Both the position numbers and the translations under genes were made by a program. The notes under the pieces were generated by a model that made no database searches, was not told the DNA's origin, and saw nothing but the letters and a program-made list of their open reading frames with translations. DNA of 58,989 nucleotides, counting the filler, from Dugesia japonica (taxonomy: Eukaryota), in NCBI GenBank assembly GCA_001938525.1. It is 5 parts of 5 records of this genome, joined end to end, with 100 filler letters (N's around TTAATTAATTAA, not from the genome) between each part and the next. Parts side by side here need not be neighbours in the genome. Positions count along the whole stretch, not along the records: positions 22,166 to 32,361 come from MQRL01599835.1; 4 more parts are not named here. The stretch is one strand, 5' to 3'. Below, one piece after another: positions 21,532 through 54,400 of this stretch (positions are counted from its first letter, which is position 1; each line of letters begins with the position of its first letter).

Positions 21532-21638
21532 GGTACCCAGACTAACCGTTCCTGAGTTATCGTGTTTAAATTTTTGATTAACTTTAATAAATTATTTATT
21601 ATTTGTATCTTTTTTAATCTATTTCTCCGATTTTAGTC

Positions 21639-22058
21639 ATGGAGTTTGACTACTTAAACGATAATTTTTCTTTAGTGCAGCGAATTGTATTCCCAACTAG
21701 TTTGCGGAGATGTCATCGGATCATGCGCCGTCTGTTGCTAGAACGTCATTTAAAGTGTAAAACTGACCGGGCTCTGTTAAGACATCTCTCTCAGCGAGAC
21801 CAATTGATCAAGAAGTTAGACTTAGTGATTAAGAAACAAAATGATTTAGCCGAAAAAACTAAGGCTCTCGAAGCACAGAATACCCAGATATTGCAACGGA
21901 AAGTAGATTTATTAAAACAATATATAGCCGACCTGTCAAGTCAGATAGGCAACCCAACTTGGGTACAATGGGATGACAACGACGATATCGACGCCTTCAA
22001 TTTTTTGTCAACCAACCCGGACCAGTGGTTAGACCCTGGCGTGTTGGAAGAAATGTAA
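21639..22058 (+). CDS. Orphan coiled-coil protein with acidic Trp-containing tail
   Basis: Intact 139-aa ATG-to-stop ORF with heptad repeats. Confidence 0.6.
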   Translation: MEFDYLNDNFSLVQRIVFPTSLRRCHRIMRRLLLERHLKCKTDRALLRHLSQRDQLIKKLDLVIKKQNDLAEKTKALEAQNTQILQRKVDLLKQYIADLSSQIGNPTWVQWDDNDDIDAFNFLSTNPDQWLDPGVLEEM

Positions 22059-22109
22059 ATGTCGTNNNNNNNNNNNNNNNNNNNNNNNNNNNNNNNNNNN
22101 NNNNNNNNN

Positions 22110-22121
22110 TTAATTAATTAA
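22110..22121. other. Artificial contig linker
   Basis: TTAATTAATTAA in N run. Confidence 0.97.
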
Positions 22122-22165
22122 NNNNNNNNNNNNNNNNNNNNNNNNNNNNNNNNNNNNNNNNNNNN

Positions 22166-22655
22166 GAATTCTACCTTGTGGTATATTGCATTAATTTTTC
22201 TCACTTCTATCTCAGATTTGAGATCGGTTTTAGGTGTAAAGAATTCTTGACATACTTGTTTGATCAGATAATCTAAGCGATAGGCATTGCGACCTTTGGT
22301 TAGGCCCAATTTCTCAAAACATCTACCGTGTGATAGGTCTCTAATTCCCAATAAACGCTGCGTCGGGATACCAATAACTTTAATGATTTCTATAGCATTG
22401 CAACCAACGATTATTTTTCCATCAAAAAGTCGGTGCAATTTGGCTCTACAGGCATATTCATCTCAACGTCCAACTATTTCTGTTTCGGTTAATCTATGGG
22501 AATGAGTTTGATAGTGCTTTATGAGTTCTCTGGGAGTAATAATAGAGTTAATTATTAATTTCCCTTTGAAATTTTCTATTGATATTGATACTAATGCTGA
22601 AGTGTTTTCACCTTTGGTTGTTGCGTATTGTGCTGGGACGAAAAGTAACTTTTCT
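22166..22655 (-). pseudogene. DEDDh exonuclease-like domain (ISG20/REX4 family), catalytic residues replaced
   Basis: SALVSISIENFKGKLIINSIITP..IKHYQT..LFDGKIIVGC..IRDLS..RLDYL..SEIEVRKINAIY matches the REX4/ISG20 pattern; two ORFs in frame across one stop. Confidence 0.72.
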
Positions 22656-23355
22656 CGCTCGTCTTCTATTCGAGGTATCCGTTGGGCGCGCAATGAAAAG
22701 TGTTCCTTTAAATCATTCTGGTTAATATTGTAGATCCAATCCTCTACAGCTTTAGTTTCGAATAATGAGTTCTCTATCTGGGTGATAAATCTCGATGACT
22801 ACTAATACATTTGTTTTATTAGTGTGAATTTGCATATTCTTTTCTCGACTGCTCCCATTGTGAATTCTGTCATGAGAGTTCAACAGGCTCTACTGTTCCT
22901 GCAATTAGTAGCATTAACTTGTCTGATGGTACATGTACTACTAAGCAATCGGTGTTGATTTTCTTCAAATTAACTGGTATTAAGTCTAATAATTTGTTCT
23001 GAGTTTTTGCTTTAAGCCATATGGCTACCAATTCACGTTCGGGAGATTCTGGGACTTTGATCATGTTTGGGATCAATGTGCACTTTTGGTAATACCAAAA
23101 ACATTTATTTGAAGTATTATATTCTTTTGAGAAATACATAAGGAAACTTGTATAGATATATTTTGGTTTAATAGACTGCGTGATTTTTGTCTTGGACTCT
23201 TCTGTTGAGTAGTAGTACTGGAATCATCTAAAATTACTATTATTAACAAATTATCCTTATAACATTATAGGTGATAGTACAAGCTCTACTGCTTGATAAA
23301 TTTTAGTGCATTCAAGCTATTCTAGCTTATTTTTTGAATGCAATTTATGATGATT

Positions 23356-24330
23356 TTATATATCAGTGGTTTCGTATATCTGGTCATTATAATATACGTG
23401 AAACCTCTTAAAATGAATTTTAGCACAGATTGAAATAAATGCTACTAATGTCATCAACAGTACTAGGCCCATAAGTATTAATTGTAATTGCTCTATTGTT
23501 ATTATTCCCAACTTGTTTGGCGAACAAATACACGTATTATTTCGAATTTCCTGTAGGCGCAATGTGGTTTTTTCCATTTTGTTAATTTCGTTTATTCTCG
23601 TGGTGGGTGTAGTTGTATTTATTTGATTTATTTTTAGTCTAGATTTCAATCCTTTCCAAAAATTGGGTTTCATTTTATAAATATCATTTCCAAGCTTTTC
23701 TGTGTTACAGTTAGCTATTTGTAAATTTTGCTTTTCTTTTTTGAAAGTACGCATTTCTTGTCGTAATAAGATCCACTTTTGACCTTCCTGTCTGAAATAT
23801 TGAAATTTCAATATTAGTTTACTTTCACATTCATAAGAAATGAGTAAGTAAGTTGATTCTTTGGTGATGTTTTTATATCGAGATGTCGTATTCTTGATTA
23901 AAATACATCTGATCGCTTCATACCTTGGTACATGTGCAACTAACATAAGATGGGTATAGTTACTGACAGCTTTGACGTATGCTGGTTTAAATGTAATAGT
24001 TTCTTGTATTTCTACCGTATATACTCTGAATTGAGTAATACTCTTAGCTGTTCAGTTTGCTTCCATCTCTGTAATCATCAACTTAATTACAAAATGTTTA
24101 TTTCTGTGTATCTCGACTTTGGGTGAGTTAGTATTTAACTGAATATTGAGATTCAACCTAGAATCCATACTTTCGATCGTCACTGTGTGATTTCTATCTC
24201 CAACATGTTCTATCACTATAGTCCGATCTTGTGCATAAAACCGAACAAATTCTGTTTCTAATAACTTTGGAGTAAAGTATTCGGCTGGAGTTGTTTGTAC
24301 AATCTGTATTAAACTCATTATGACCAAAAA
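23356..24330 (-). pseudogene. Post-integrase type I membrane protein-like region
   Basis: Signal-like IVNFLVIMSLIQIVQT, beta-rich ectodomain, TM LQLILMGLVLLMTLVAFISICA. Confidence 0.5.
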
Positions 24331-24459
24331 ATTAACTATTTTTGGTGGTTGTTTAGATCTCAGAGTATATTTATGATCCTCTGTCGTACTTTGTTGCTTT
24401 GACCTTTTCTGAATCTTTTTATCTTTTATCTGTTTTACTTCAACCGCTTCTGTACTGGT

Positions 24460-25560
24460 TGGTATAAATTTCTTGCAACGATTAGCATGAACGAATATTG
24501 GTTCATGGTCTGGTTTATTATGTAGTTGTAATAACACGTTTGTATCGGTAGTTTTAATAACTTCTTAAGGTCCTTTAAATGGCCTCATTAACTTTGGTGA
24601 AAATCCCTTTTTATTGGAGTGTCCTTCTAACATCATTAAATCTCCTGTTATGAATGGATTTTCTTTCGTTGTTTTATCATATCTTTCTTTCATTGATTCT
24701 TGATTGAATTTGATATTCAACCCAGCTNNNNNNNNNNNNNNNNNNNNNNNNNNNCTCAATTCTACTGCATAATCTTTTTCATCCATATATTGTGAAATTT
24801 GTGGATAGAAAATTAAATCAACTGGCATATTTGTATGCCGTCCGTACATCATATAAAATGGTGATTGATTTATGCTTGGTTGTATTGCATTTCTGTACGC
24901 AAATAAGCACGATGGAATGTGTACATCCCAATCGGTTTGGTTAGTGTTAACATATGACGCGAGCATATTAACAAGCGTGTCATTAAATCGTTCTACTAGA
25001 CCATTGGTTTGTGGATGGTAGGGTGATGTATTTAACTTCAAAATTCCCAAAATACTCGTTTATTGCTTTAATGAGATTGCTCATAAAATTAGTTCCTCTA
25101 TCAGATAACAATTTTTTAAGAACTCCAAACTTAAATATTATTTGTTCGACAAAAACCTTTGCTATTGTAGGGGCTTCATGATTTGGTAAAGGAAAAGCTT
25201 CAGACCATTTAGTGAGATAATCGCAAAATACTAAGATGACTCTATTTCCGCTGCTTGTTAGTGGAAATCTTCCGAAACCTCGACGGCTAGTACATCCCAA
25301 GGATGTAATGATACTGGCATTGGTTTAATGGTTCTTTAGCTTTCTTTCCTGTGTTTCTTCTGGTAGCGCAAATTTGACATGATTGACACCATGCTTTAAC
25401 ATCTAGTTCCATAGATGGCCAAAAATATTTGAATTTTAATCTAGATAGTGTTTTTCTGGTGTACAAATGTCCTCCTAATGCTCCATCGTGATATTAGAGT
25501 AACAATGGATCTCTTAAATTGTTAGGAACAACAACAGTTGATTGTTGAGCATCCATAAAT
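24460..25560 (-). pseudogene. Gypsy integrase
   Basis: HH-CC zinc region, DYLTKWSEAFP, LLSDRGTNF, TSPYHPQTNGLVERFN, FKGP, VHANRCK. Confidence 0.95.
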
Positions 25561-25686
25561 TTAATAATACCTTCATCGATTATGAAACAATTTTGATCTT
25601 TGTGCCATCCTTTAGGCAATTCTGTTATTTCTCCTTTGATTAACTTGTTAACTAATTTTAATTCATCATCGTCTTGTTGTGCTTGT

Positions 25687-27000
25687 TTAATATCGATTTT
25701 GCTTCAGAATAGTAAATATAGTATCTGTCGTTTGATATTGCTCACTTGGCAAACGAGATATAGCGTCTGCGTTAGCATTGGCTTGTCCCTTTCTGTATCG
25801 TACTTCGATATCGTACTTTTGTAACTCTAATGCATATCTGATAAATTTAGATAGATTATTTTTATGTTTCATCAGCCATTGTAATGGGCAGTGATTGATT
25901 AGTACAATCACTTTTCAACCTCATATGTATTGTCTAAACTTTTGAACTGCGAAAATTATTGCATATGTTTCTAATTCAATGACTGCATAGTTTTTCTGAT
26001 GTTTTTTTAATAGCTGGCTCGCATATGCAACAGCACACTCTTTTCCATCATCATCTATTTGTCCTAGGACCGCTCCGACTGCTAAATTACTAGCGTCAGT
26101 CATTACATAAAATTGTCTTGACATATCTGGATGTCGCAAAATTGGTTAAGTAATCAATTTTTTTTAACGTTTCAAATGCTTGCTGTTGTTCAGCTCTCCA
26201 ACTGAATTTTACATTTTTTCTATCCAATTTAGTCATTGGATGCGCGATTTTTGCAAAAGTTTCAATGAATTTTCGATAATAATTAGCTAAAGCCACAAAT
26301 TATTTGGTTTCCATTTGATTTTTAGGAATTGGATAATCTTTTACTTTTTTAATGTTATTTGGGTCTGGTTTAACCCCATCTCTAGATATAACATATCCCA
26401 AGTATTCAATTTTGTCTTGACACCATGTGCATTTTGTTGGTTTCAATTTGATTCCTGCCTGTCTCATACGTTGGAAAACTACTTCAATGTCTTTCAAATG
26501 TGATTTCAAGTCTTCAGAAAAGATTATAACATCATCGATATACACGATGGCATGATCTACATCCATTAAAGCGAAATTCATAGCTCTTTGAAAAGTAGCT
26601 GGTGCTCTGGTTAAACCAAAGTGCATTAAATTGTACTCAAATAATCCTTTATCAGTGGCAAATGCTGTTATTGCTTTGGCTTTTTCATCCATGATGAAAT
26701 CCTATATTCGCATCTAGTGCTGAAAACATTTTAGCATTTCGTAGTCGTCGTATTATTTCCTCTATTAATGGTAGAGGGAAAGCATCCTTTATAGATACTT
26801 AATTTACTGCTCTGTAATCAATACACAATCGTATTCCTCCTCCCTTTTTCTTCACCACGATTAATGGCGAACACCAAGGTGATTTGCTTGGTCTGATTAG
26901 TTTGTGTTTACGCAGTAGTTCTACTCTTTCATGAACTAGCTTCTGTAATGGTTACGGTATTGGATACAGTCGTTTTTTGATTGGAGCAGGATTTATTAAT
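25687..27000 (-). pseudogene. Gypsy reverse transcriptase and RNase H
   Basis: [63 protein letters not shown]. Confidence 0.97.
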
Positions 27001-27444
27001 GTAATTTCGTGCTTTAGTATCTTACATACTCCTAAATCGAATTCGTGTTTTGAGAAAATATCTCCGTATTTTCTGAGTAAACTCATAAAATCGACTTTTT
27101 CTTCCATAGACAGTTCTAAATTCATTACTGATGGTGGATCATATATTTCTATTTCATCCACTTTAGGTTGTTTTGTTGATATTTCATCTCTTTGCATTAC
27201 TGTAATTTTTCCAATTTTTGTATTTGGAAACAACAATTTATTTTTGTTATCTAAATTACATATTCTGATTGGTATTTCCCCATTCTTCGGTTTAACTAAT
27301 GCAATTGCTGATCGGGATATTATATTTCCGTATGAATTCTGGATTTGGTTCAAACAATACGTCTTCCGTAATTTCTTTATTCACATTAACATAACAGATC
27401 ACTTCTGTTCTTCTAGGGATTTCAATTCTATTTGAGATAAATGC

Positions 27445-27840
27445 CTAATCTCTGTCGTAGACTATCTTTTTATCTGGTGTAATCTTTACTAGACTACCGC
27501 TAGTGCAATCAAAACTTACGTCTTGTAATTGCCTTAATACATCCATTCCCAATATGGCTTCACTAGGACAATTTATCATTACTCTCGCTGCTACTTCAAA
27601 TGTTTGATCACATACTTTGAATTTAAATTTTAAGTGTCCTTTCAACTTTACTTCTACTCCGTTTATTCCAGTAGGTATTATTGCTGCTTTTGTAATTTCA
27701 TCAATTTCTGTATAGTTTAATATTTTGTAGTCGATCAGTGTGACATCTGATCCGGTATCGATTATTGAGTATACCCAATGTCTGTTAACTTTTATTTTTA
27801 TAGTTGGTTTTTGATATTTAGGAGATTCGTTGGATATCAT
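27445..27840 (-). CDS. Retropepsin aspartic protease
   Basis: IIDTGSDVTLI and AILGMDVL. Confidence 0.93.
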   Translation of the reverse strand: MISNESPKYQKPTIKIKVNRHWVYSIIDTGSDVTLIDYKILNYTEIDEITKAAIIPTGINGVEVKLKGHLKFKFKVCDQTFEVAARVMINCPSEAILGMDVLRQLQDVSFDCTSGSLVKITPDKKIVYDRD

Positions 27841-27852
27841 AAATACTGACTC

Positions 27853-30213
27853 TTAGATTATCAATCCCTTTCTTTTCATTTCATCTTGTAGTTGTTGCTG
27901 TTGTTTCAACTGATCTAACGGTTTTATAGGATATTGAGATTGGATTGGTGCAGTAGATGCTGTATACTGCCATGATTTATTTCTATCATTGATCTGTACT
28001 TCGTCATCTGAATATGACGTAACCAAATTTTGATGATGCCTTTTTACTGTTAGAGAAAATATTTTAGTTCTTTTTTCATCCTCTAAATCTGAATAATCTG
28101 AAAAAAATTTTTAATGATGATTTATTTTGATTGGATTTCATTCTGTATTGTCAAGAGGCAACATGATATATGTTTTGTCTCACCCCTCCATCCTTTGGAT
28201 AGTTATCGTCCTGATGATCATCATCTTCAAAATAAATTTCTCTGTGTCTAGGCATTGATTGCTTTTGATTTAATTCGTTGATCAATTTATGATGCCTTCT
28301 GAATATAAGATGTGTTGCTATAAATGGACAACATCCAAATATTAATTTCCAAGTGCATCCAATTGTTTTGTAGATGTCTGCAAAAGATAATACCTGTTCT
28401 GCTGCGACTTTTATTAATACTAATATTATTAATATGCCTGAGATTCCTGCCATAGTTGTTCCAAAGGCAGTGAAACATCCCCATACGCTTCCCCATATTT
28501 GACGTGCAACACTTTTTGCCGCATGTTTGTAGTGTTCTATTCCAAATAATTAGTTATAATCTAGCATTTGCATTCCATTTTGGTAGATGGTTCTTATAAT
28601 TTCCGAAATTCTTCTTTCTCTTACTTTAGGAAAGAATATCGTTTTTAATGCTTCATCTATATCTTGTCGTGTATAGACTCTGTTTGTATTTATGACGTTG
28701 ATTGGTTCGGCTTCAAAGTTTTGATCTAACTTTATAGCCTATATTGTATGCACCTCAGCTGGTGGTGGCTTTCTATCTGGTAATGATATCCAGATGTTAT
28801 TGATTTTATATAATGGTAATAATACACCATTATACATAGATATTTGTGGTTTAGCTTGTTCATCTATCAATAAATGAGTGATAGGAGTCATAAATCGTCA
28901 TTTTTTTGATAAATTACTAGAAATTCGATCGTACACGGAGCATAGTTTGTTACTGCAACTACTACCGCTTCACAACGATACACATATAACGCTTCTGCCA
29001 TAATTCTACCGAACATTCCATCTTCGGCTATTATTTGAGTTATTAAATCTGGGTTAATTATTGATAGTGCTAATCTATTTCTCATAATTTCTCGATTTAA
29101 TCGACAGTCGTTTAGTATCACTTCTTGATAAATTTCTTTTAATTCTGCTTGAAGATCATGATACAAGTAATCAACTTTGTTATTAATATAATTTGTTAGT
29201 TTTATATCCATTGAATGTATCTTGTTAGCAGTTGATATTTACTTTTTGCTTAGATATATATCTTTATAATTGGTTTCGTAGACAATTTCTGCACATTTAG
29301 TGGTTTGAGCTTTTCGCACCAGTCTAATGGCATCTTTTGAATCTGCTGAAATTAACATTATCAGTGTTCTCTTTTCATCCAATCCTTCTTCTCTGCTTTC
29401 ATTTTTGGCTGTTTTTGCATTTATTTTATGGTTAACAACCTTTTCTGCTTTAAATTTTGTGCCATTTATTTTTTCAAAAGTCACTTGCTTAAGCAGTGCT
29501 AGTTCGCAAAAGTTTAATTGTGGTTTGTAAATCATTCTTGCTGCTTCCGTGGAGCATGGTGCATATTTCGAGTTGGATTCGGGATAATTAACCATTTTTC
29601 CCGTAATAGCTTCGAATACTCCTTCATATTCTAATAGTTCGACGACATATTCCTCAATATCTACAACCCCCGTTTTTACTCAAGTTTGTCCTCTCCATTT
29701 ACCGGGTCCATCGTAGGTTTTGTCGTCTTTAATGTAACCTCGTATCAATGTGTCTACTAGTTTTTTATTTGGCAATGCTTTAATTGATCTTTCTTTGTCA
29801 ATACGTAACTTTTGTGTTCCTAACGCATTTTCACAGTCTTCCGACAACACACGTATCGGTCTGGGTGTTATTTTCATTGATAGAAACACTGTGTATGAAT
29901 GTCTACCGCACCAATATTCGAAAGTAGATTGTTGTAATCTGCATTCTCTGACTTCCGTGCGATAGTACGTAGTTTCTTGGTACACGTAGTATGCTTCCGG
30001 ATTACTTCGCTGTAATCTTGTTGGATATGCAACTTTACATTCGATAGTATCAACTAAAGAATATATTTTGACTAATTCTGGCTTCTTGCAATCATACGCT
30101 ATCAATCCTGATGTTTGCGTGATCATTTGCGTTAAAAGAATTGTTAATAACATCAAAATAGTATTTTGTAAATTTAGTGGTCTCTTTACTGGTATTTGAT
30201 TGTTACCTCTCAC
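27853..30213 (-). pseudogene. Chuvirus-like (class III) envelope glycoprotein
   Basis: Signal peptide then GLIAYDC..YSLVDTIEC; C..S..YWCG.HS; YETNY; MDIKLTNYINNKVDYLY; LYVYRCEAV; C-terminal FGTTMAGISGILIILVLIK TM region. Confidence 0.82.
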
Positions 30214-30992
30214 TGTTCGTAATTATAGGAATTCGGACCATTGCCCATGTGTGACAATCCATGGTTCTACAAATTGTACGATTATGCCACTCAGCATTTC
30301 TATCTCTTGATCTAGGTCAAAATTTTTCTCGTTAGCATGTTCTATTCGTTTGATTAAATAAGCAAAAATATTACATATCTTTGCTTCATCTAGGCCAGTT
30401 TCATACACTTACCGTATGACCGCACTTATATTTTCACCGTCATATTGTACTGTCGGCAGTTGATCGATGCAACTCTTAATCAATTTTTAAATTGATATTC
30501 ACAATCCACTTTATCTAGTGGTAACTCTGGCATGATTTTTTTTTACTAAATTATTAGTTAACTTTTCAGTACTCGACATTCGATGTATAGGTACCTCTGG
30601 TGGTTGATTCCACGTTGGAACTGCTGCTGTAATTTGTCTTGCTCTAAGTGCACTTCGTGTTTCATCTGATAACAGATTTCTAAGTGGCGGTATTTACCCT
30701 GAATTAGGTGGTCTACCTCTTCGTCTTGTATTTACGTGAGAGTTAGCATGTCTAATTTGTGTTAGTACCTCTTGTACTGTACTTGTTTGATTAATAATTG
30801 GTGGTCTTATTTCTTCATCTGTAGGCACATTTTCTACATCAGAAATGATTACATCGTCTACATCTAAATCTACTTGATGCAATTGATTAATCGGCTCTAT
30901 CATAACCGGTATTACTGCTTCGGGAGGTGGGGGTGTATTGAGCTTATCCATCTCCATTCGATTATGTTCAGTTTCCTCTTCAGACTCTTCTG

Positions 30993-31750: not shown

Positions 31751-32294
31751 AGCTCTAACTCTTGGTTTGAGCTGGCATCCGATTTTCTGTAAAATCGCTA
31801 ATGCTGGATCATCAAACATGTTATCTTCATTTACTCGAGTTGTAACAAGCTCTAATGCTTCCGGTATATCGCTATCCGGTATNNNNNNNNNNNNNNNNNN
31901 NNNNNNNNNNNNNNNNNGCATTTCATTTACTTTTTGTCTGTATTTGTCAATTTTTAAACATTTCCCCATGTCTGTTTTTTCTTCAAATGACGTATCTGAT
32001 AGTAAGAAATATACACTGTTTTCATCATCACTAGTCGTTGTATACGACTCATTGTCTGTATCGCTTTCAATTGCCTCATTTTTCTTTGCATAGAAAATGG
32101 TTTCATTGTTATCTGTATTTGTCGGTATGCTTCCTTGAGCATAGTAAATATCGTCATTGTCAGATTGTTCCTGCAATTTGCTCAGTCGCGTTCTCTCCTT
32201 CTGGAGTTCATATTCTAATTGTTCTAACAGGCTTTTGCAGTTGTCTTCATCTACTAAATGAGTAGTAGGTATTCCTTGTGTAATTTCCCTTGAA

Positions 32295-32361
32295 GCACTA
32301 CAGGATCTAGCCATGTGTCCGTACTTCTTGCAATTGTGACATTTTATTTGTCCCTCTGTAT
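32295..32361 (-). CDS. Gag nucleocapsid zinc knuckle
   Basis: CHNCKKYGHMARSC, in frame with ORF 31571-32314. Confidence 0.9.
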
Positions 32362-32405
32362 NNNNNNNNNNNNNNNNNNNNNNNNNNNNNNNNNNNNNNN
32401 NNNNN

Positions 32406-35049: not shown

Positions 35050-38000
35050 TGATTTCATCTTTAATTCTTTGTTATCAGGAGAGTGTTTTATATCATTATC
35101 ATTAAATAACCATAAGACAGAAAAAATTGTTAGATCTAAAAACTATATAGATNNNNNNNNNNNNNNNNNNNNNNNNNNNNNNNNNNNNNNNNNNNNNNNN
35201 NNNNNNACCATCATTTTGTAACATTAGTGCCAATATTTTAGTTTTTAATTTTCCAGATTTCGGTTCTTTATGTATAGTCTTGCATTGGACACAGGTTTTA
35301 CAATCAGTTCTTGAGAGAGCATCTGCATTCAGATGTTCTTCACCTTTTATGTATTCCATTTTAATATCCGAATTGCTAAGATGGTTGATTAATATCTGAA
35401 ATTGTGGTGTTTTTGGTCCTTTAGTCTTCCGCATAAATGTTATTGCTTTAAAATCAGTTCTTAATCGAAATCTCTGTCCATACAAATAATGTTTAAAATG
35501 TTCTGTGAAATAAACAATCGACAAAAGTTCTATTCTGGAAATGCAATAGCCCAGCTCGTGTTTACTCATGGCTTTAGATTCGTAAGCAATAACTTTTTCT
35601 TCACCATAGTTATCAATTTGACTTAAAACTCACCTATTCTATCAAAGCTGACATCAGTGTCCAATATAAATTCTATAGAAAAATTCAGAAACGCTAAAAC
35701 TGGAGCTTTTATTAGCTCACCTTTCAAATTTTTAAAAGAAATTTCGCACTCATCTGTCCAGTATATTTTTTCTGGTTACTACCACATAGATTTTCTAAAC
35801 ATTTTGAATACTTTGTGTAATCCTTTATAAATTTTTTATAAAAATTTGCGAGGTCTATAAAAGTTCTAAACTTTTTAACACATTTTGGGGTTTCAAAATT
35901 AAAAATGGCTTCAATTTTTCACTATCAGTATGGATCTCTCTTGAATTAATAATGTGACCCAGAAATTTTATCTCGTTTTTCATGAAATGACATTTAGATG
36001 GACTTATTTTTAAATCAGCTTCTTTTATACTATTAATAATATCCACCTTTTAATAATTGTGCACCTTTTGTCGAAAATGCAGTTTTACATTTTGAGTCAT
36101 CTGTTAATTCTACTTGATAGTAAGCATTACCCAAATCTATACTAGTAAAATATTTGGCTCCATATAAAATGGAATAAGAAAAATTGGTCTTTCTGTAACT
36201 TCGTTTAACAATCTATAATCTAAGCAAAGTCGTATGTCATCATGGTCTCGTTTTTTTACGCAAACCAAAGGAGCATTCCAAGGGGAGTCACATTTACATA
36301 TAATTCTATTTATATCCATTTCTTTAATATTTTGCTCAATTTAATCTATTAAATGATAAGGTTGACGCCTAAGAATATTTGCAATTGGTTTACTATTTGT
36401 TATTATTTCATGTTTTACAATAATACTTTTTCCAATATCCCATTTATGTTTAATTATAATGCTTTCATATTTTTCTAAAATCGTGAAAATCATTTTATCT
36501 TTAATATTTTCAATTACTAATGTTTTCGGTTTAAATTTATTTACATTAACAGATTCTTCATTAATGGTGAGTTTTATATTAAATTTATTCAATAGATTTA
36601 TTCCACAAATAACANNNNNNNNNNNNNNNNNNNNNNNNNNNNNNNNNNNNNNNNNNNNNNNNNNNNNNNNNNNNNNNTTAAATATACTTTTCCTACAATT
36701 TTTAAAGAACTATTATTCGCACATTTAACATTTATATCAGAATCAATTACTAAAACATTTGCAATTCTTTTTAATAATTCATATTTAATAAGACTAATTT
36801 TAGCTCAAGTATCAAGTAAACATGATGTAACAATATTATTAATTTTTAAATTTATCATAGGTCGACTATCTGCGGTATTATAGTTTTCATAAATTTCTTT
36901 ATCAAAATTATTAATAATTGATAAATTATTATTATCGTTATAATTTTCATTACTACTATAATTATTTTTATTATCCACAATTATATCAAGCATAATATCA
37001 TCACACAAATTTTTTTCAAGCAATCAATATCAATCATACCATTATTGCTCAAATCAAATCTTAAATTTTTTAATGAATCGCCCCGACAACTTCCTCTCTT
37101 GGAAGGGCTTTGGCTTTTGGCAATTGATCTGTCATCATCTGTCATCAAATCATCTGAATGTTCATCGTATGCTGCAACATTGTTTTGACGATAATCTCTT
37201 TTCATATCCCGAATCTCATAGCATTAATGTTTAAAATATCCAGGTCTGTTACACTGGAAACCTTTTACATTTGGACAATTAACTCTGACATGTCCTTCTT
37301 TTTTGCATGACCAACATCTTTTAGATCTTTGTGGAAAATTATTTTCCNTTCTCTTAAATCCTCTTCCGTNAAAACGATTAATGGGTGTACTTGAATTAAC
37401 ATATCTTCTGGAATTCGAATATCGGTTTCTGTTGTTTTCCACTAAGTTATTCCTTTTAAATGTGACTGGGTAATTTGACTGAAAATCATTAAATTTTGCA
37501 GTTGTTGCATAATTCTTCTTTCTGATTTTAATTGCTGCAACATTGACTTCTAGATTAAGCTCCTTCTTGATGTTGTCCATTTTTGAAAAAATGTCTTTCA
37601 TTTCTTCATTTGTACTGGATACTCGAATTTTTATTTCTTTTTTACATCCATATCTTCAACAGCGTTTTGTAAAAGAAAACTGATGAGATTTTCCTTTGTT
37701 AAGTTATGTCTAATTATATTCTCTGCAAGACTATCAATTTTGTTGAAAAACNNNNNNNNNNNNNNNNNNNCTTTTCGATAATTTAATGCAGATAATAAAT
37801 CTTTACCTGAGGAAAAAAATGCTTTCATAAATGTTCTTTGAACAGGACCTTGAGGCATTGTAAGCTCATAAAATCTTGCTATCTCGATAAAAAATACTTC
37901 CACATCGTCTCCAATATTGAAGGTTTTGGAGTAAGAACAAAGGAATTGAGCATATGTTCTTGGGTGGTCACCATGTTAGAAGTCTGTTTCATAACCATAA

Positions 38001-43116: not shown

Positions 43117-43315
43117 AGCCAGGGGGATACTGTTCAGTGGAGATATTTTCTAGGATGAATATTGTCCAAGGGGATACTGTCCATGGGAGATATTGTCTAG
43201 GGTGAATATTGTACAAGGGAATATTGCCCAGGGTTAATATTGTCCAGGGGAGATATTGTCTAGGGTGAATATTGTACAAGGGAATATTGCCCAGGGTGAA
43301 TATTGTCCTGATACC
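43117..43315. repeat. 15-16 bp tandem array ending in GATACC, resembling a MULE-type subterminal repeat/TIR
   Basis: About 12 units of ccaggg(g/t)gaatattgt, with a 61-bp higher-order duplication. Confidence 0.7.
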
Positions 43316-48349: not shown

Positions 48350-49165
48350 ATTGATTCAGTGCTTATGCGCTACTATCCCCCTACTACCATAAATGATAAC
48401 CCTAACCCATTTAGTGATGCTCAGCATACTAGCTGTGATACAGGGGAATCGACTATCAATTATTTAGTTGATCTTCGTCAATGCGGTCTAACGAAACTCA
48501 AAAAAATAAAAATCAATGTAATTGAAGGAAAGCAATTTTCTGAGACCGTATTAGAGATGTTGAAAGACCAGTACTTGTAATACAAGAGAGAACAACCTAA
48601 CCCCGACGTGTATATAACCAATTCTACTGACGAAACTATGAGATTTGTTGGTAAAGGCAACTATAAAGGTTTGTATCTTAGTTCAGAGGATAGAAAGGCA
48701 GCAAAGTCGCAAGTGGTGTTATATGAATACTGTCGAATGCCGTTTGGGTGGAAGAATTGCTCAGCTGCTTTTCAAAGATTCATGGATACAATTCTGAGAG
48801 AGCATCAATGATATTATTAAATGTTCAAAAAATGAAGCAGGCCATGAAGATCATGTACAAAAAGTAACCAACACCATTTATTCTATTGGAGTAGAGATCA
48901 ATGCGGATAAGTGTATTTTTCGATCGCTGCAAGTAGAATTTTTTTGATTCAAGATATCAGAGAGTGGAATCCTTCCTAAAACTGAAACAATCAAAAGCTT
49001 GAGAGAAATGAGCCTTCCAGCCAACTTAAAGAGCTTGCAAAGATTTATCCAGCAATTGAATTATCCAGACAAGTCAAAACAATTTGTGTTAAGAACTGAT
49101 GCATCATTAGAACAATTGGAGCAAGTGGAATCAGAAGGCAAACATACTCCAATAGCATTTTTTTC
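48350..49165 (+). pseudogene. Heavily deleted Gypsy pol fragment (RT, RNase H start)
   Basis: YEYCRMPFGWKNCSAAFQRFMD; INADKC; LQRFI; YPDKSKQFVLRTDAS. Confidence 0.88.
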
Positions 49166-49680
49166 TGTTTTCTCCATTCGCCTCAACTCTCCTTTTTTCT
49201 CTCTTTTTGCGTCCTCTCTCATCGGTTCCCACTGTATCACTCCGTCCTGCTCTGTTCGCCTCGAATCTCCTCAGTTCCCTATTTTTCCTCCACTCTCCTC
49301 TGTTCGCCTCTACTCTCCTCTGTTCACTCCATTTGCCTCCACTCTCCTCTGTTCGCCTCTACTCTCCTCTGTTCGCCTCTACTCTCCTCTGTTTGCCTCT
49401 ACTCTCCTCTGTTCCCTCTATTTGCCTCCACTCTCCTCTGTTCTCTATTTTCGCCTCCTGTTTTCTCTGTTCGCCTCTACTCTCCTCTGTTCAGTCTATT
49501 TGCCTCTACTCTCCTCTGTTCCCTATTTTTCCTCCACTCTCGTATGCTCGCCTCTACTCTCCTCTGTTCCCTATTTTTCCTCCACTCTCTTCTGATCTCT
49601 CTTTTCGCCTCCTGTTTTCTCTGTTCGCCTCTACTCTCCTCTGTTCCATCCATTTGCCTCTACTCTCCTCTGTTCCATCT
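49165..49680. repeat. Pyrimidine-rich minisatellite (about 21/31-bp units)
   Basis: Recurring gcctctactctcctctgttc. Confidence 0.92.
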
Positions 49681-49844
49681 TTATTGAAACTGTCTCACTA
49701 CTTTTGAGAACACACCTTGCGTGTTCTTAATTTGTTCATTCCAAAAGCGAAGAAGTCCGGTGAAAAAGTGGCGACAAAATCACAAAAACCGTTTTTCACC
49801 GTTCTTCTTTAATATTTGAATAATTAGAAGTTGTCTAATACCAG

Positions 49845-51499: not shown

Positions 51500-54400
51500 G
51501 ACTGAATCTTTGTTGTCTTGGTTGATCACGTATGTTGTTTTTATTACTAATTCGTCTACCCAATGCCTGTAATTAGTTTGTAATACTACTTCCTATCTTA
51601 AACCTGTTCAATGTTATGTGGGTGTAATAAGCCTTAGTCGAAGCTTTTGTTATGTATGTTAGGAATTCAGCTCTAGTTATGAAACTTTCTTACTCGTTAA
51701 TCGATTTCTTGTTGTCATGTGGTATTTCTTAAACTTCTAGTTTTTGTGTAACCATTCGATTGGTGTTGATACGAGTAACTAAATTACTTTTCAATTCCAA
51801 ATTTTCCTAGTTTCTATGTCATCACTTGACTTTCAAACACTTTGCTTCTGTCAGACAGAATGGATTTTGGTTTACCAAAACGGTATATCCACTTGTTTAA
51901 AATTATCTTAAAAATCATCTCTTCATCCATTTTTGATACTTCAGATAAGATGACTAGTTTGCAACAACGATCAATAGTCACAGCCATATATTTTTTTCCC
52001 GATTTCCTCTGTTCCATATGAACTATGTCCACTACGATTTGTTCTAAAGAAATTTGGTTTCTTCACTGTAAAACGTTTTCTTTTGTACGACTTTGTACTG
52101 CTTTCCTTTTGGCACACATCTCGCATTTATCAATACATTTATTAATTGTCTCGCGAATCTCTGGACAGAAATAACCATCTTGTACGTATGAAAATAACTT
52201 TTTCCTGTCCTCATGACATAAATCTTCATGAATTTGTTTTATTACTTTATCAACTATGCTTGTCTGAACCGTTAACAAAAACTTATTTCCTCTCTCTTTA
52301 ACTTATAAATCATCCACTATTTTCAATTCGTGCTTAAGTTTATTTCAGTAGCTTCCTTGTTCACTAATTTTAGTTTCTAAACCTTCTTCTTGCAACATTG
52401 TTAAACAGGTTTGATTTTCTGAATCTTCTGTATGAACCTGTCGAATCATTGTAATTATGTTGAATTCTATTGATATGTTTTACTATGGTCTTTTCTAATT
52501 TTGCGTCTATGTGTTTCATGCTATATTGTGAACATAAACTCTCCTTTAGCCTCGACAACCCATCTGTATTGTTGTGCTCTTCGCATTTTATATACTTGAG
52601 TTCAAAATAATACTCTCCTAAACTTGCAATCTACATCTGAAATTGTGGACTGATTAGTTTCTTTGTGTTGTTCAGAAACACCAACGCTTTTTGGTCGGTT
52701 CTAACAAGAAATCTCTTTCTAAACCAATATTGTTTGAAGTGTTTTACAAATTCGTGTAAAGCTAATAATTCTTCCCTTGTCACTAAATATTCTTTGTCAT
52801 GAGCTGTCAAATGTCAGGATCCATACGCTATTACCACTTCCTTTTCTAAGGACTGTACCCATAGCCAAAAAACTAGCGTTAATGTCTAAAATAAACTTCT
52901 GATCTTCCCTGGGATATTCCAATACTGGAGCACTTCATAACTTTTCTTTTAACGCATTGAAACTGTTCTTGCATGCGCTGTCTAAACTAACTGTTTGTTG
53001 CAACCTAAAGTTGCTTCATATAAAGGACCTGCTATTTTTGCTTAATCTTTTATTAAACGCCTATAGTAGTTTGTTAATCCGAGAAACGAAACGGAGTCTT
53101 GAAGAACATTCTGAATTCTGGAACTTTAGCATTCTTAATCTCTTGAATCTTAACTTCATTAGTGCGTATACCAGTTGTGCTAACTGTACATCCCAAGAAC
53201 AACACTTCTTTCTGATAAAACTTACATTTTTCCGGGTTTATTTTTAACCTTGAGTCTCTGATTCTGTAAAAGACTATCTCTAACATTTTGTCGTAACTCT
53301 CTAAGGTTTTTCCGTACATCAGAGTATCGTCCCGATATACAATAATTCCTTTGAAAATTAATACCTCCAATAACTCGTGTATTATTTTTGAAAAGTGGCT
53401 GGTGCCGTAGCTAATCCAAAAAGCATNCGGTTAAATCTGAATTGACTTTCCTTTGTGTTAAAAGCAGTGACATCCATAGACTTTTCCGCTAACTTCACTT
53501 GGTAATAAACTTGGCCCAGATTAATCGATGAAAATAATTTTGAGCTAGATAAATAATCTAATAATAACGGAATGTCTGGCATTGGAAAAGAGACTTTTCT
53601 GTCTTCAAATTAACTTGTTTGTAATCCACGCATATTCTTATCGAACCGTTCTTTTTTTACCTACAATCACTAATGGAGAATTCCAAGGAATATTACACTT
53701 GCTGATCCCACCAATCTTTGCTAATTCTTTAATAATATCTTCAATTTTCTTTTCTTGGTGCATTGGCTGTCTTCTATGGTGTTGTACTATTTGATCTCCT
53801 TTATTTTTTATTTCATGTATTACTTTTCTTGTATGCCCAATATCGAACTTTGAAGCCATGATTATCTCACCAAAATTCTGGATCAACTGAATCATTATTA
53901 TTTTATCTATTCCTTTAAACAAATTTAGAGCGTTACTTTTTCCTATTTTCATCAGAATGTGCTATCTTCAAACTCTCATTTTTTATATTATTTGTTTCTG
54001 TCAATTTCACTCCAAAACTTTGCATTGTATCAATACCGCTTATTAATTTGGGATGGATCTGTCTAACTTGGATGACTTTAATTTTCCTGACTTTCTTGTT
54101 CCACCGCATACTTAATTCTGCTGTACCCTACGGTTTTTCTCCTCTCTTATTAAATGCTCCATTTNATCTAATTTTGCATATCGACAACAATGGTTTTCCA
54201 ATTTTAATCCAACAGTTTTAACTTATGACTGTCGCCGAAGCTTCTGAATCCCAGAACATCTTTAACTTTAATACATAAACATATAACCTAGTCTACTCTC
54301 GTCCATCTTCTTTTTCAAATAACTCTCCTCTTTTATCATCATTTCGATTTATTTTGTCTTTTTCTATCCTGATTCCATGGACGAAATGTAAGCAATTGAG

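Follow-up and report, generated by a model that had tools for sequence, protein, structure and literature searches.

An ISG20-type exonuclease fold without catalytic residues, encoded downstream of pol in a planarian retroelement: a candidate RNA-binding accessory protein

We analyzed a window of 58,989 nucleotides of Dugesia japonica DNA (assembly GCA_001938525.1), in which several contigs are linked via spacers of the form N+TTAATTAATTAA+N. The contig at 22166–32361 (MQRL01599835.1; next spacer at 32362) carries a retroelement on the minus strand, whose accessory gene sits at the contig's left end. The features are as follows.

22066..22165, no strand: assembly spacer (N run, TTAATTAATTAA, N run), a contig boundary and not biology
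22166..23227, minus: accessory gene after pol (double-stranded beta-helix plus pseudo-DEDDh domain), broken, truncated by the contig end
22166..22660, minus: ISG20/ISG20L2-type DEDDh-fold domain without catalytic residues (alignment and fold match)
22205..22222, minus: exo III His...Asp positions, reading Leu...Glu (translation, alignment)
22385..22387, minus: exo II Asp position, reading Ile (translation, alignment)
22463..22465, minus: in-frame stop within the DEDDh domain, decay of the window copy (translation)
22628..22636, minus: exo I DxE position, reading P-A-Q (translation, alignment)
22764..23214, minus: N-terminal AlkB-like double-stranded beta-helix without HxD...H; one stop and frame breaks in the window copy
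23356..24340, minus: signal-peptide-like and transmembrane segment after integrase, candidate second surface protein (by-eye reading of the translation)
24472..27852, minus: pol with protease, RT, RNase H and integrase (Pfam RVP, RVT_1, rve_3), with stops and frameshifts
28226..30219, minus: env between gag and pol, Monjiviricetes_fusion (gB/chuvirus-type; PF24664, E 1e-16 and 2e-18, above cut-off)
31918..32359, minus: gag fragment with a CCHC zinc knuckle (PF00098), truncated by the right contig end

Read on the minus strand, the order is thus gag, env, protease-RT-RNase H-integrase, the signal-peptide/transmembrane segment and then the accessory gene. Stops and frameshifts occur throughout gag, env and pol, and the element is a decayed GAG-ENV-POL Ty3/gypsy copy. 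It is multi-copy: in four runs, 320, 273, 118 and 29 contigs matched 22166–24700 at 80% identity or higher. By gene order and env type it can be likened to HSV/gB-type errantiviruses, of which GAG-ENV-POL forms are described from Platyhelminthes, Nematoda and Bryozoa (PMC13524379), and to the planarian element Burro, whose extra domains are others (PMC6431247). The words "exonuclease" and "DEDD" do not occur in the main text of PMC13524379.

The accessory gene starts with a Met at 23227, as read from the translation, with a probable extra frame break near the start codon. A tblastn search with an intact sister (P0002) recovered three pieces in three frames, corresponding to residues 7–124, 127–160 and 163–359. 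The contig ends at approximately residue 359; the full gene encodes 582 aa in an intact sister. The window copy is therefore dead, and any selection would have operated at the level of the element lineage instead of this particular insertion. An earlier note on this DNA had placed the domain at the 3' end of the retroelement; its assignment to a retroelement stands, but the 3' end is not established because the gene is cut by the contig end.

The accessory protein is predicted to comprise two folded domains, an AlkB-like beta-helix without the iron motif followed by an ISG20-type fold, and a disordered tail (pLDDT mostly >90 across residues 21–360 of the model). The second domain has the DnaQ/DEDD fold, with ISG20 and ISG20L2 as the closest structures, and in the window its catalytic set, normally Asp, Glu, Asp, His, Asp, reads P, Q, I, L, E, so that all five positions are changed and the last is still acidic. 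In P0002 the set reads A, Q, L, L, E. The note had claimed from sequence an ISG20/REX4-like domain with every catalytic residue replaced, and both parts were borne out. The fold is that of the ISG20/ISG20L2/REX4-type DEDDh exoribonucleases (PDB 1wlj, 7yw5; PMC10899777), but here the five catalytic residues are replaced, an N-terminal beta-helix is fused, a long disordered tail follows and the protein is retroelement-encoded. Weak Pfam matches to DUF2845, UvrC_RNaseH and PH_fung_RdRP were below cut-off and were rejected.

AlkB 2OG-Fe(II) dioxygenases carry the iron triad HxD...H. The N-terminal domain is a double-stranded beta-helix with AlkB-like flanks, at ~6–13% identity to AlkB structures, and cupins and prolyl hydroxylases score within ~1–2 Z. 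When the triad was sought in the family, one column showed HxD/E, in no more than 3 of 53 rows, and just one His column was conserved; no 2OG-Fe(II) oxygenase Pfam family was among the matches listed (25 of 30 families, 62 members). An AlkB-like fold in a Ty3/gypsy accessory ORF is also described in Phalaenopsis, where the AlkB/2-ODD ORF encodes an active m6A demethylase with plant AlkB as a close relative (PMC9289625), in contrast to the low identity and missing iron motif here.

We compared the catalytic columns among family members. Of 75 aligned rows, 18 partial ones were dropped, and Asp or Glu was scored as intact at exo II. Among the 57 scorable rows, all five sites were kept in 33, none in 21, and one or two in 3; this count takes in the window copy, two proteins of cellular appearance and two rows whose tails are aberrant, the latter four being excluded from the column-conservation analysis. 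The family is DEDDh and not DEDDy, with His at the DEDDh position in 33/33 intact rows and RNase_T in 30 of 73 matches. Ranked by identity, the closest relatives with all five catalytic columns filled were P0002 (69%, 0/5 sites kept), P0003 (56%, 0/5), P0004 (38%, 2/5), P0005 (35%, 0/5) and P0007 (33%, 0/5), and the open frames of these dead relatives span 515–609 aa. The best relative with all five sites intact was 31% identical. Since intact relatives at 69% and 56% also lack the sites, the catalytic loss predates the decay of the window copy.

In the 33 intact rows, 17 columns outside the catalytic set reached at least 85% conservation; the 22 dead rows kept these at a mean of 71%, against 0–5% for four catalytic sites and the GHD Asp. 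Arg238 was retained in 22/22 dead rows, Arg301 in 20/22 and His249 in 18/22, and an aromatic residue occupied the ISG20L2 Met186 RNA-contact position, mapped by hand, in 18/22. Within the window lineage, the dead nuclease domain was better conserved than the N-domain and the tail in 5/5 pairs (e.g., 61%, 45% and 40%, respectively).

Phylogenies point the same way regarding the age of the loss. With the catalytic columns blanked, P0002–P0005 and P0007 formed a dead clade in the tree of both domains (SH-aLRT 99), and the window-lineage dead clade including the window copy received SH-aLRT 95, again with these columns blanked. For the nuclease domain alone, 17 of 19 dead members fell in one clade (SH-aLRT 88). 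A single origin of all dead members was not supported: the dead state needs two or three changes (three with both domains), with an AU p of 0.026 against one dead clade in a quick tree with long branches. Judged from these alignments and trees, the catalytic loss is common to an old lineage and is not post-insertion decay. The earlier suggestion that the scaffold was retained without catalysis, rather than decaying at random, is upheld by this comparison among copies, and we consider it very probable that the domain is a selected pseudo-nuclease.

A word-indexed homologue search with the fragment's length gave no match and one with a longer length gave one protein; a profile built from six dead members found no further relatives, and viral-contig scans for family relatives found none in 3/3.

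A metagenome scan with intact members yielded nine loci, seven of them from one assembly and hence not independent samples. L001 and L006 were too short for context, L008 duplicates L007 (99.9% identical), and L009, by eye an ordinary cellular REX4-type gene, was excluded as context. Gypsy pol lay directly upstream of the family gene at L002, L003, L005 and L007, with an env of the same family at two of these loci, and the family gene was a separate ORF downstream of pol at these four loci and in the window; at L004, the upstream ORF resembles the pol tail of L005. The window pol was ~38–59% identical to the pol of L002, L003, L005 and L007 over RT, RNase H and integrase (tblastn). An intact DEDDh set was found at 7/7 loci scored. 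At L007:7286-10371 (also L008), pol is succeeded by a dead and an intact paralogue of the two-domain protein in tandem and then by a 204-aa ORF; the dead member (sites S, R, Q, E, E) is immediately upstream of the intact one. The genomic context of dead members is thus drawn from two elements only, the window and L007/L008.

Some further features of these elements were observed. Beyond integrase, the pol polyprotein at L007:3-7106 also contains a second aspartyl protease-like domain and ankyrin repeats, and the second protease-like segment is likewise present in L002, L003 and L005. Tails similar to the window segment 23356–24340 (minus strand) occur in L002 and L003. Small accessory ORFs without a Pfam match lie beside the exonuclease gene at L003:9105-9770 and L002:11586-12020.

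Arenavirus NP uses a DEDDh fold against dsRNA sensing. In cells, the fold is kept without catalysis for nucleic-acid binding or scaffolding in the DEDD pseudo-nucleases PML PXL (PMC13659232), Maelstrom and EXD1 (PMC5408684) and Exuperantia (PDB 5l80), which serve as our working model; these are host genes, whereas the window protein is element-encoded and belongs to the ISG20/REX4 branch. The window domain lies outside the active ISG20/REX4 enzymes, and we infer that it works like these pseudo-nucleases. Our main reading, to which we assign a probability of roughly 0.5, is that the accessory protein, lacking DEDDh catalysis across an old lineage, is a non-cutting RNA-binding factor for the element. 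The ancestor would have been an element-borne active 3'-5' exoribonuclease in which catalysis disappeared on more than one occasion; retention of the fold may reflect a continuing grip on RNA 3' ends or stem-loops. During packaging, the dead protein could then coat, shield or chaperone the element RNA, or sequester small-RNA intermediates, as protection from the host's silencing and 3'-5' decay.

Precedents for binding without cutting are reported: ISG20 D94G, although inactive, retains binding to the HBV epsilon stem-loop (PMC5388505), and the PML PXL pseudo-exonuclease is an RNA binder (PMC13659232). RNA contacts of ISG20L2 include Arg226 and Trp229 (PMC10899777); by hand mapping, neither dead nor intact members have conserved equivalents of these at positions 245 and 248. 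Dead domains were not more basic than intact ones with the catalytic columns set aside (+2.7 vs +4.0, p 0.26). Support for RNA binding from these comparisons appears mixed, and the conserved residues could be purely structural; granted a selected pseudo-nuclease, the chance that RNA binding is its mechanism seems about even.

Other explanations differ in how they account for the same columns. Decay after insertion, acting on an active exonuclease gene, is scarcely credible as the source of the changes. The window copy has indeed decayed, with 2 stops in ~1,050 aligned nt of the accessory gene, a density like that of env and pol (13 stops in 5,262 nt), and where it differs from sister contigs in the frame of the domain, the nine differences are spread 4/3/2 over codon positions 1/2/3 (among 40 of 577 difference rows listed), but the same sites are missing from the intact relatives at 69% and 56%, and the dead lineage of P0002–P0005 and P0007 is strongly supported. 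Hardly more attractive, and very improbable in our view, is a protein that is still a nuclease through a rearranged active site built from the retained Glu and nearby acidic residues. Glu at the last catalytic site and Glu/Asp one residue before exo II, each in 14/22 dead rows, and Asp at position 261 in 21/21 would fit such a site; however, the His and both exo I carboxylates are lost, the replacements are heterogeneous with Arg and Lys among them, and mutation of any one of the five residues is reported to inactivate ISG20L2 (PMC10899777). An N-terminal beta-helix that performs the function by binding a ligand or modified base, with the DEDD fold as a structural mount, is improbable too, given that the dead nuclease domain is the better conserved of the two in all five pairs and that HxD/E is so rare in the beta-helix.

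We regard as unlikely, though less readily dismissed, that the dead protein acts via protein contacts as a partner, regulator or decoy, for instance with an adjacent intact paralogue or with host decay or piRNA factors. The tandem arrangement at L007/L008 and the lack of any gain of positive charge in dead domains agree with such a role, and because the window contig ends inside the dead gene, an intact paralogue further downstream is possible there as well. Against it, L007 and L008 amount to one independent element, the L007 paralogues are far apart in the tree, where the dead one does not group as sister to the window lineage, and the intact copies at L002, L003 and L005 have no dead neighbor in the DNA examined. 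A broader form of the RNA-binding reading is tentative but conceivable: in env-carrying GAG-ENV-POL elements, the two-domain family may have diverged repeatedly to give an active nuclease on one side and a double pseudo-enzyme on the other, the latter being an element-encoded RNA-binding suppressor of host small-RNA or decay defenses, at times beside an active paralogue. If true, it would be a transposon counterpart of viral silencing suppressors, built on a fold that serves hosts in antiviral defense.

The accessory family, including its AlkB-like and ISG20-like fusion, was not found described in the literature searched (subscription journals, Repbase annotations and bioRxiv supplements lay outside its scope), and the accessible part of PMC13269885 held nothing relevant. 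The two-domain family is apparently undescribed, the closest precedents found being the DEDDy ORFs of rotifers and the active AlkB of orchids. In rotifers, DEDDy ORFs whose catalytic residues are intact form part of LTR elements (PMC5408684, PMC5718144, PMC6338049, PMC6431247), and in bdelloid Juno/Vesta ORF3 and Terminons a DEDD-superfamily accessory ORF likewise lies downstream of pol (PMC5408684). Rotifer ORF3 is RNase D-like, DEDDy and intact, unlike the ISG20-type DEDDh domain here, which has a second domain, an accompanying env and dead lineages. As a precedent drawn from rotifer and nematode LTR elements in the earlier note, the rotifer half therefore applies loosely; the nematode half found no counterpart, with no mention in the accessible text of PMC5408684 and none in the literature searched.

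In invertebrate endogenous retroviruses, accessory genes have hardly been characterized, and counter-defense proteins of animal retrotransposons have rarely been identified. The 70-odd clusters of this family include active as well as dead natural versions of one protein, in one case as a tandem pair within a single element. This makes it directly testable what use a retroelement has for a 3'-5' exonuclease and why it would keep a disarmed one.

Elsewhere in the window, a 146-aa coiled-coil-like ORF (21618–22058, plus strand) lies at the end of the neighboring contig, in a stretch with a higher G+C content than the DNA around it, and has sub-threshold Pfam matches only; it was rejected as part of the element, being beyond the spacer and without a match to the family or its neighbors' ORFs. 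Three other decayed gypsy-like pol fragments occur on other contigs (35258–36517 and 51724–53889, minus strand; 48653–49136, plus strand), and tandem repeat arrays are present at 49177–49682 and 43127–43299.
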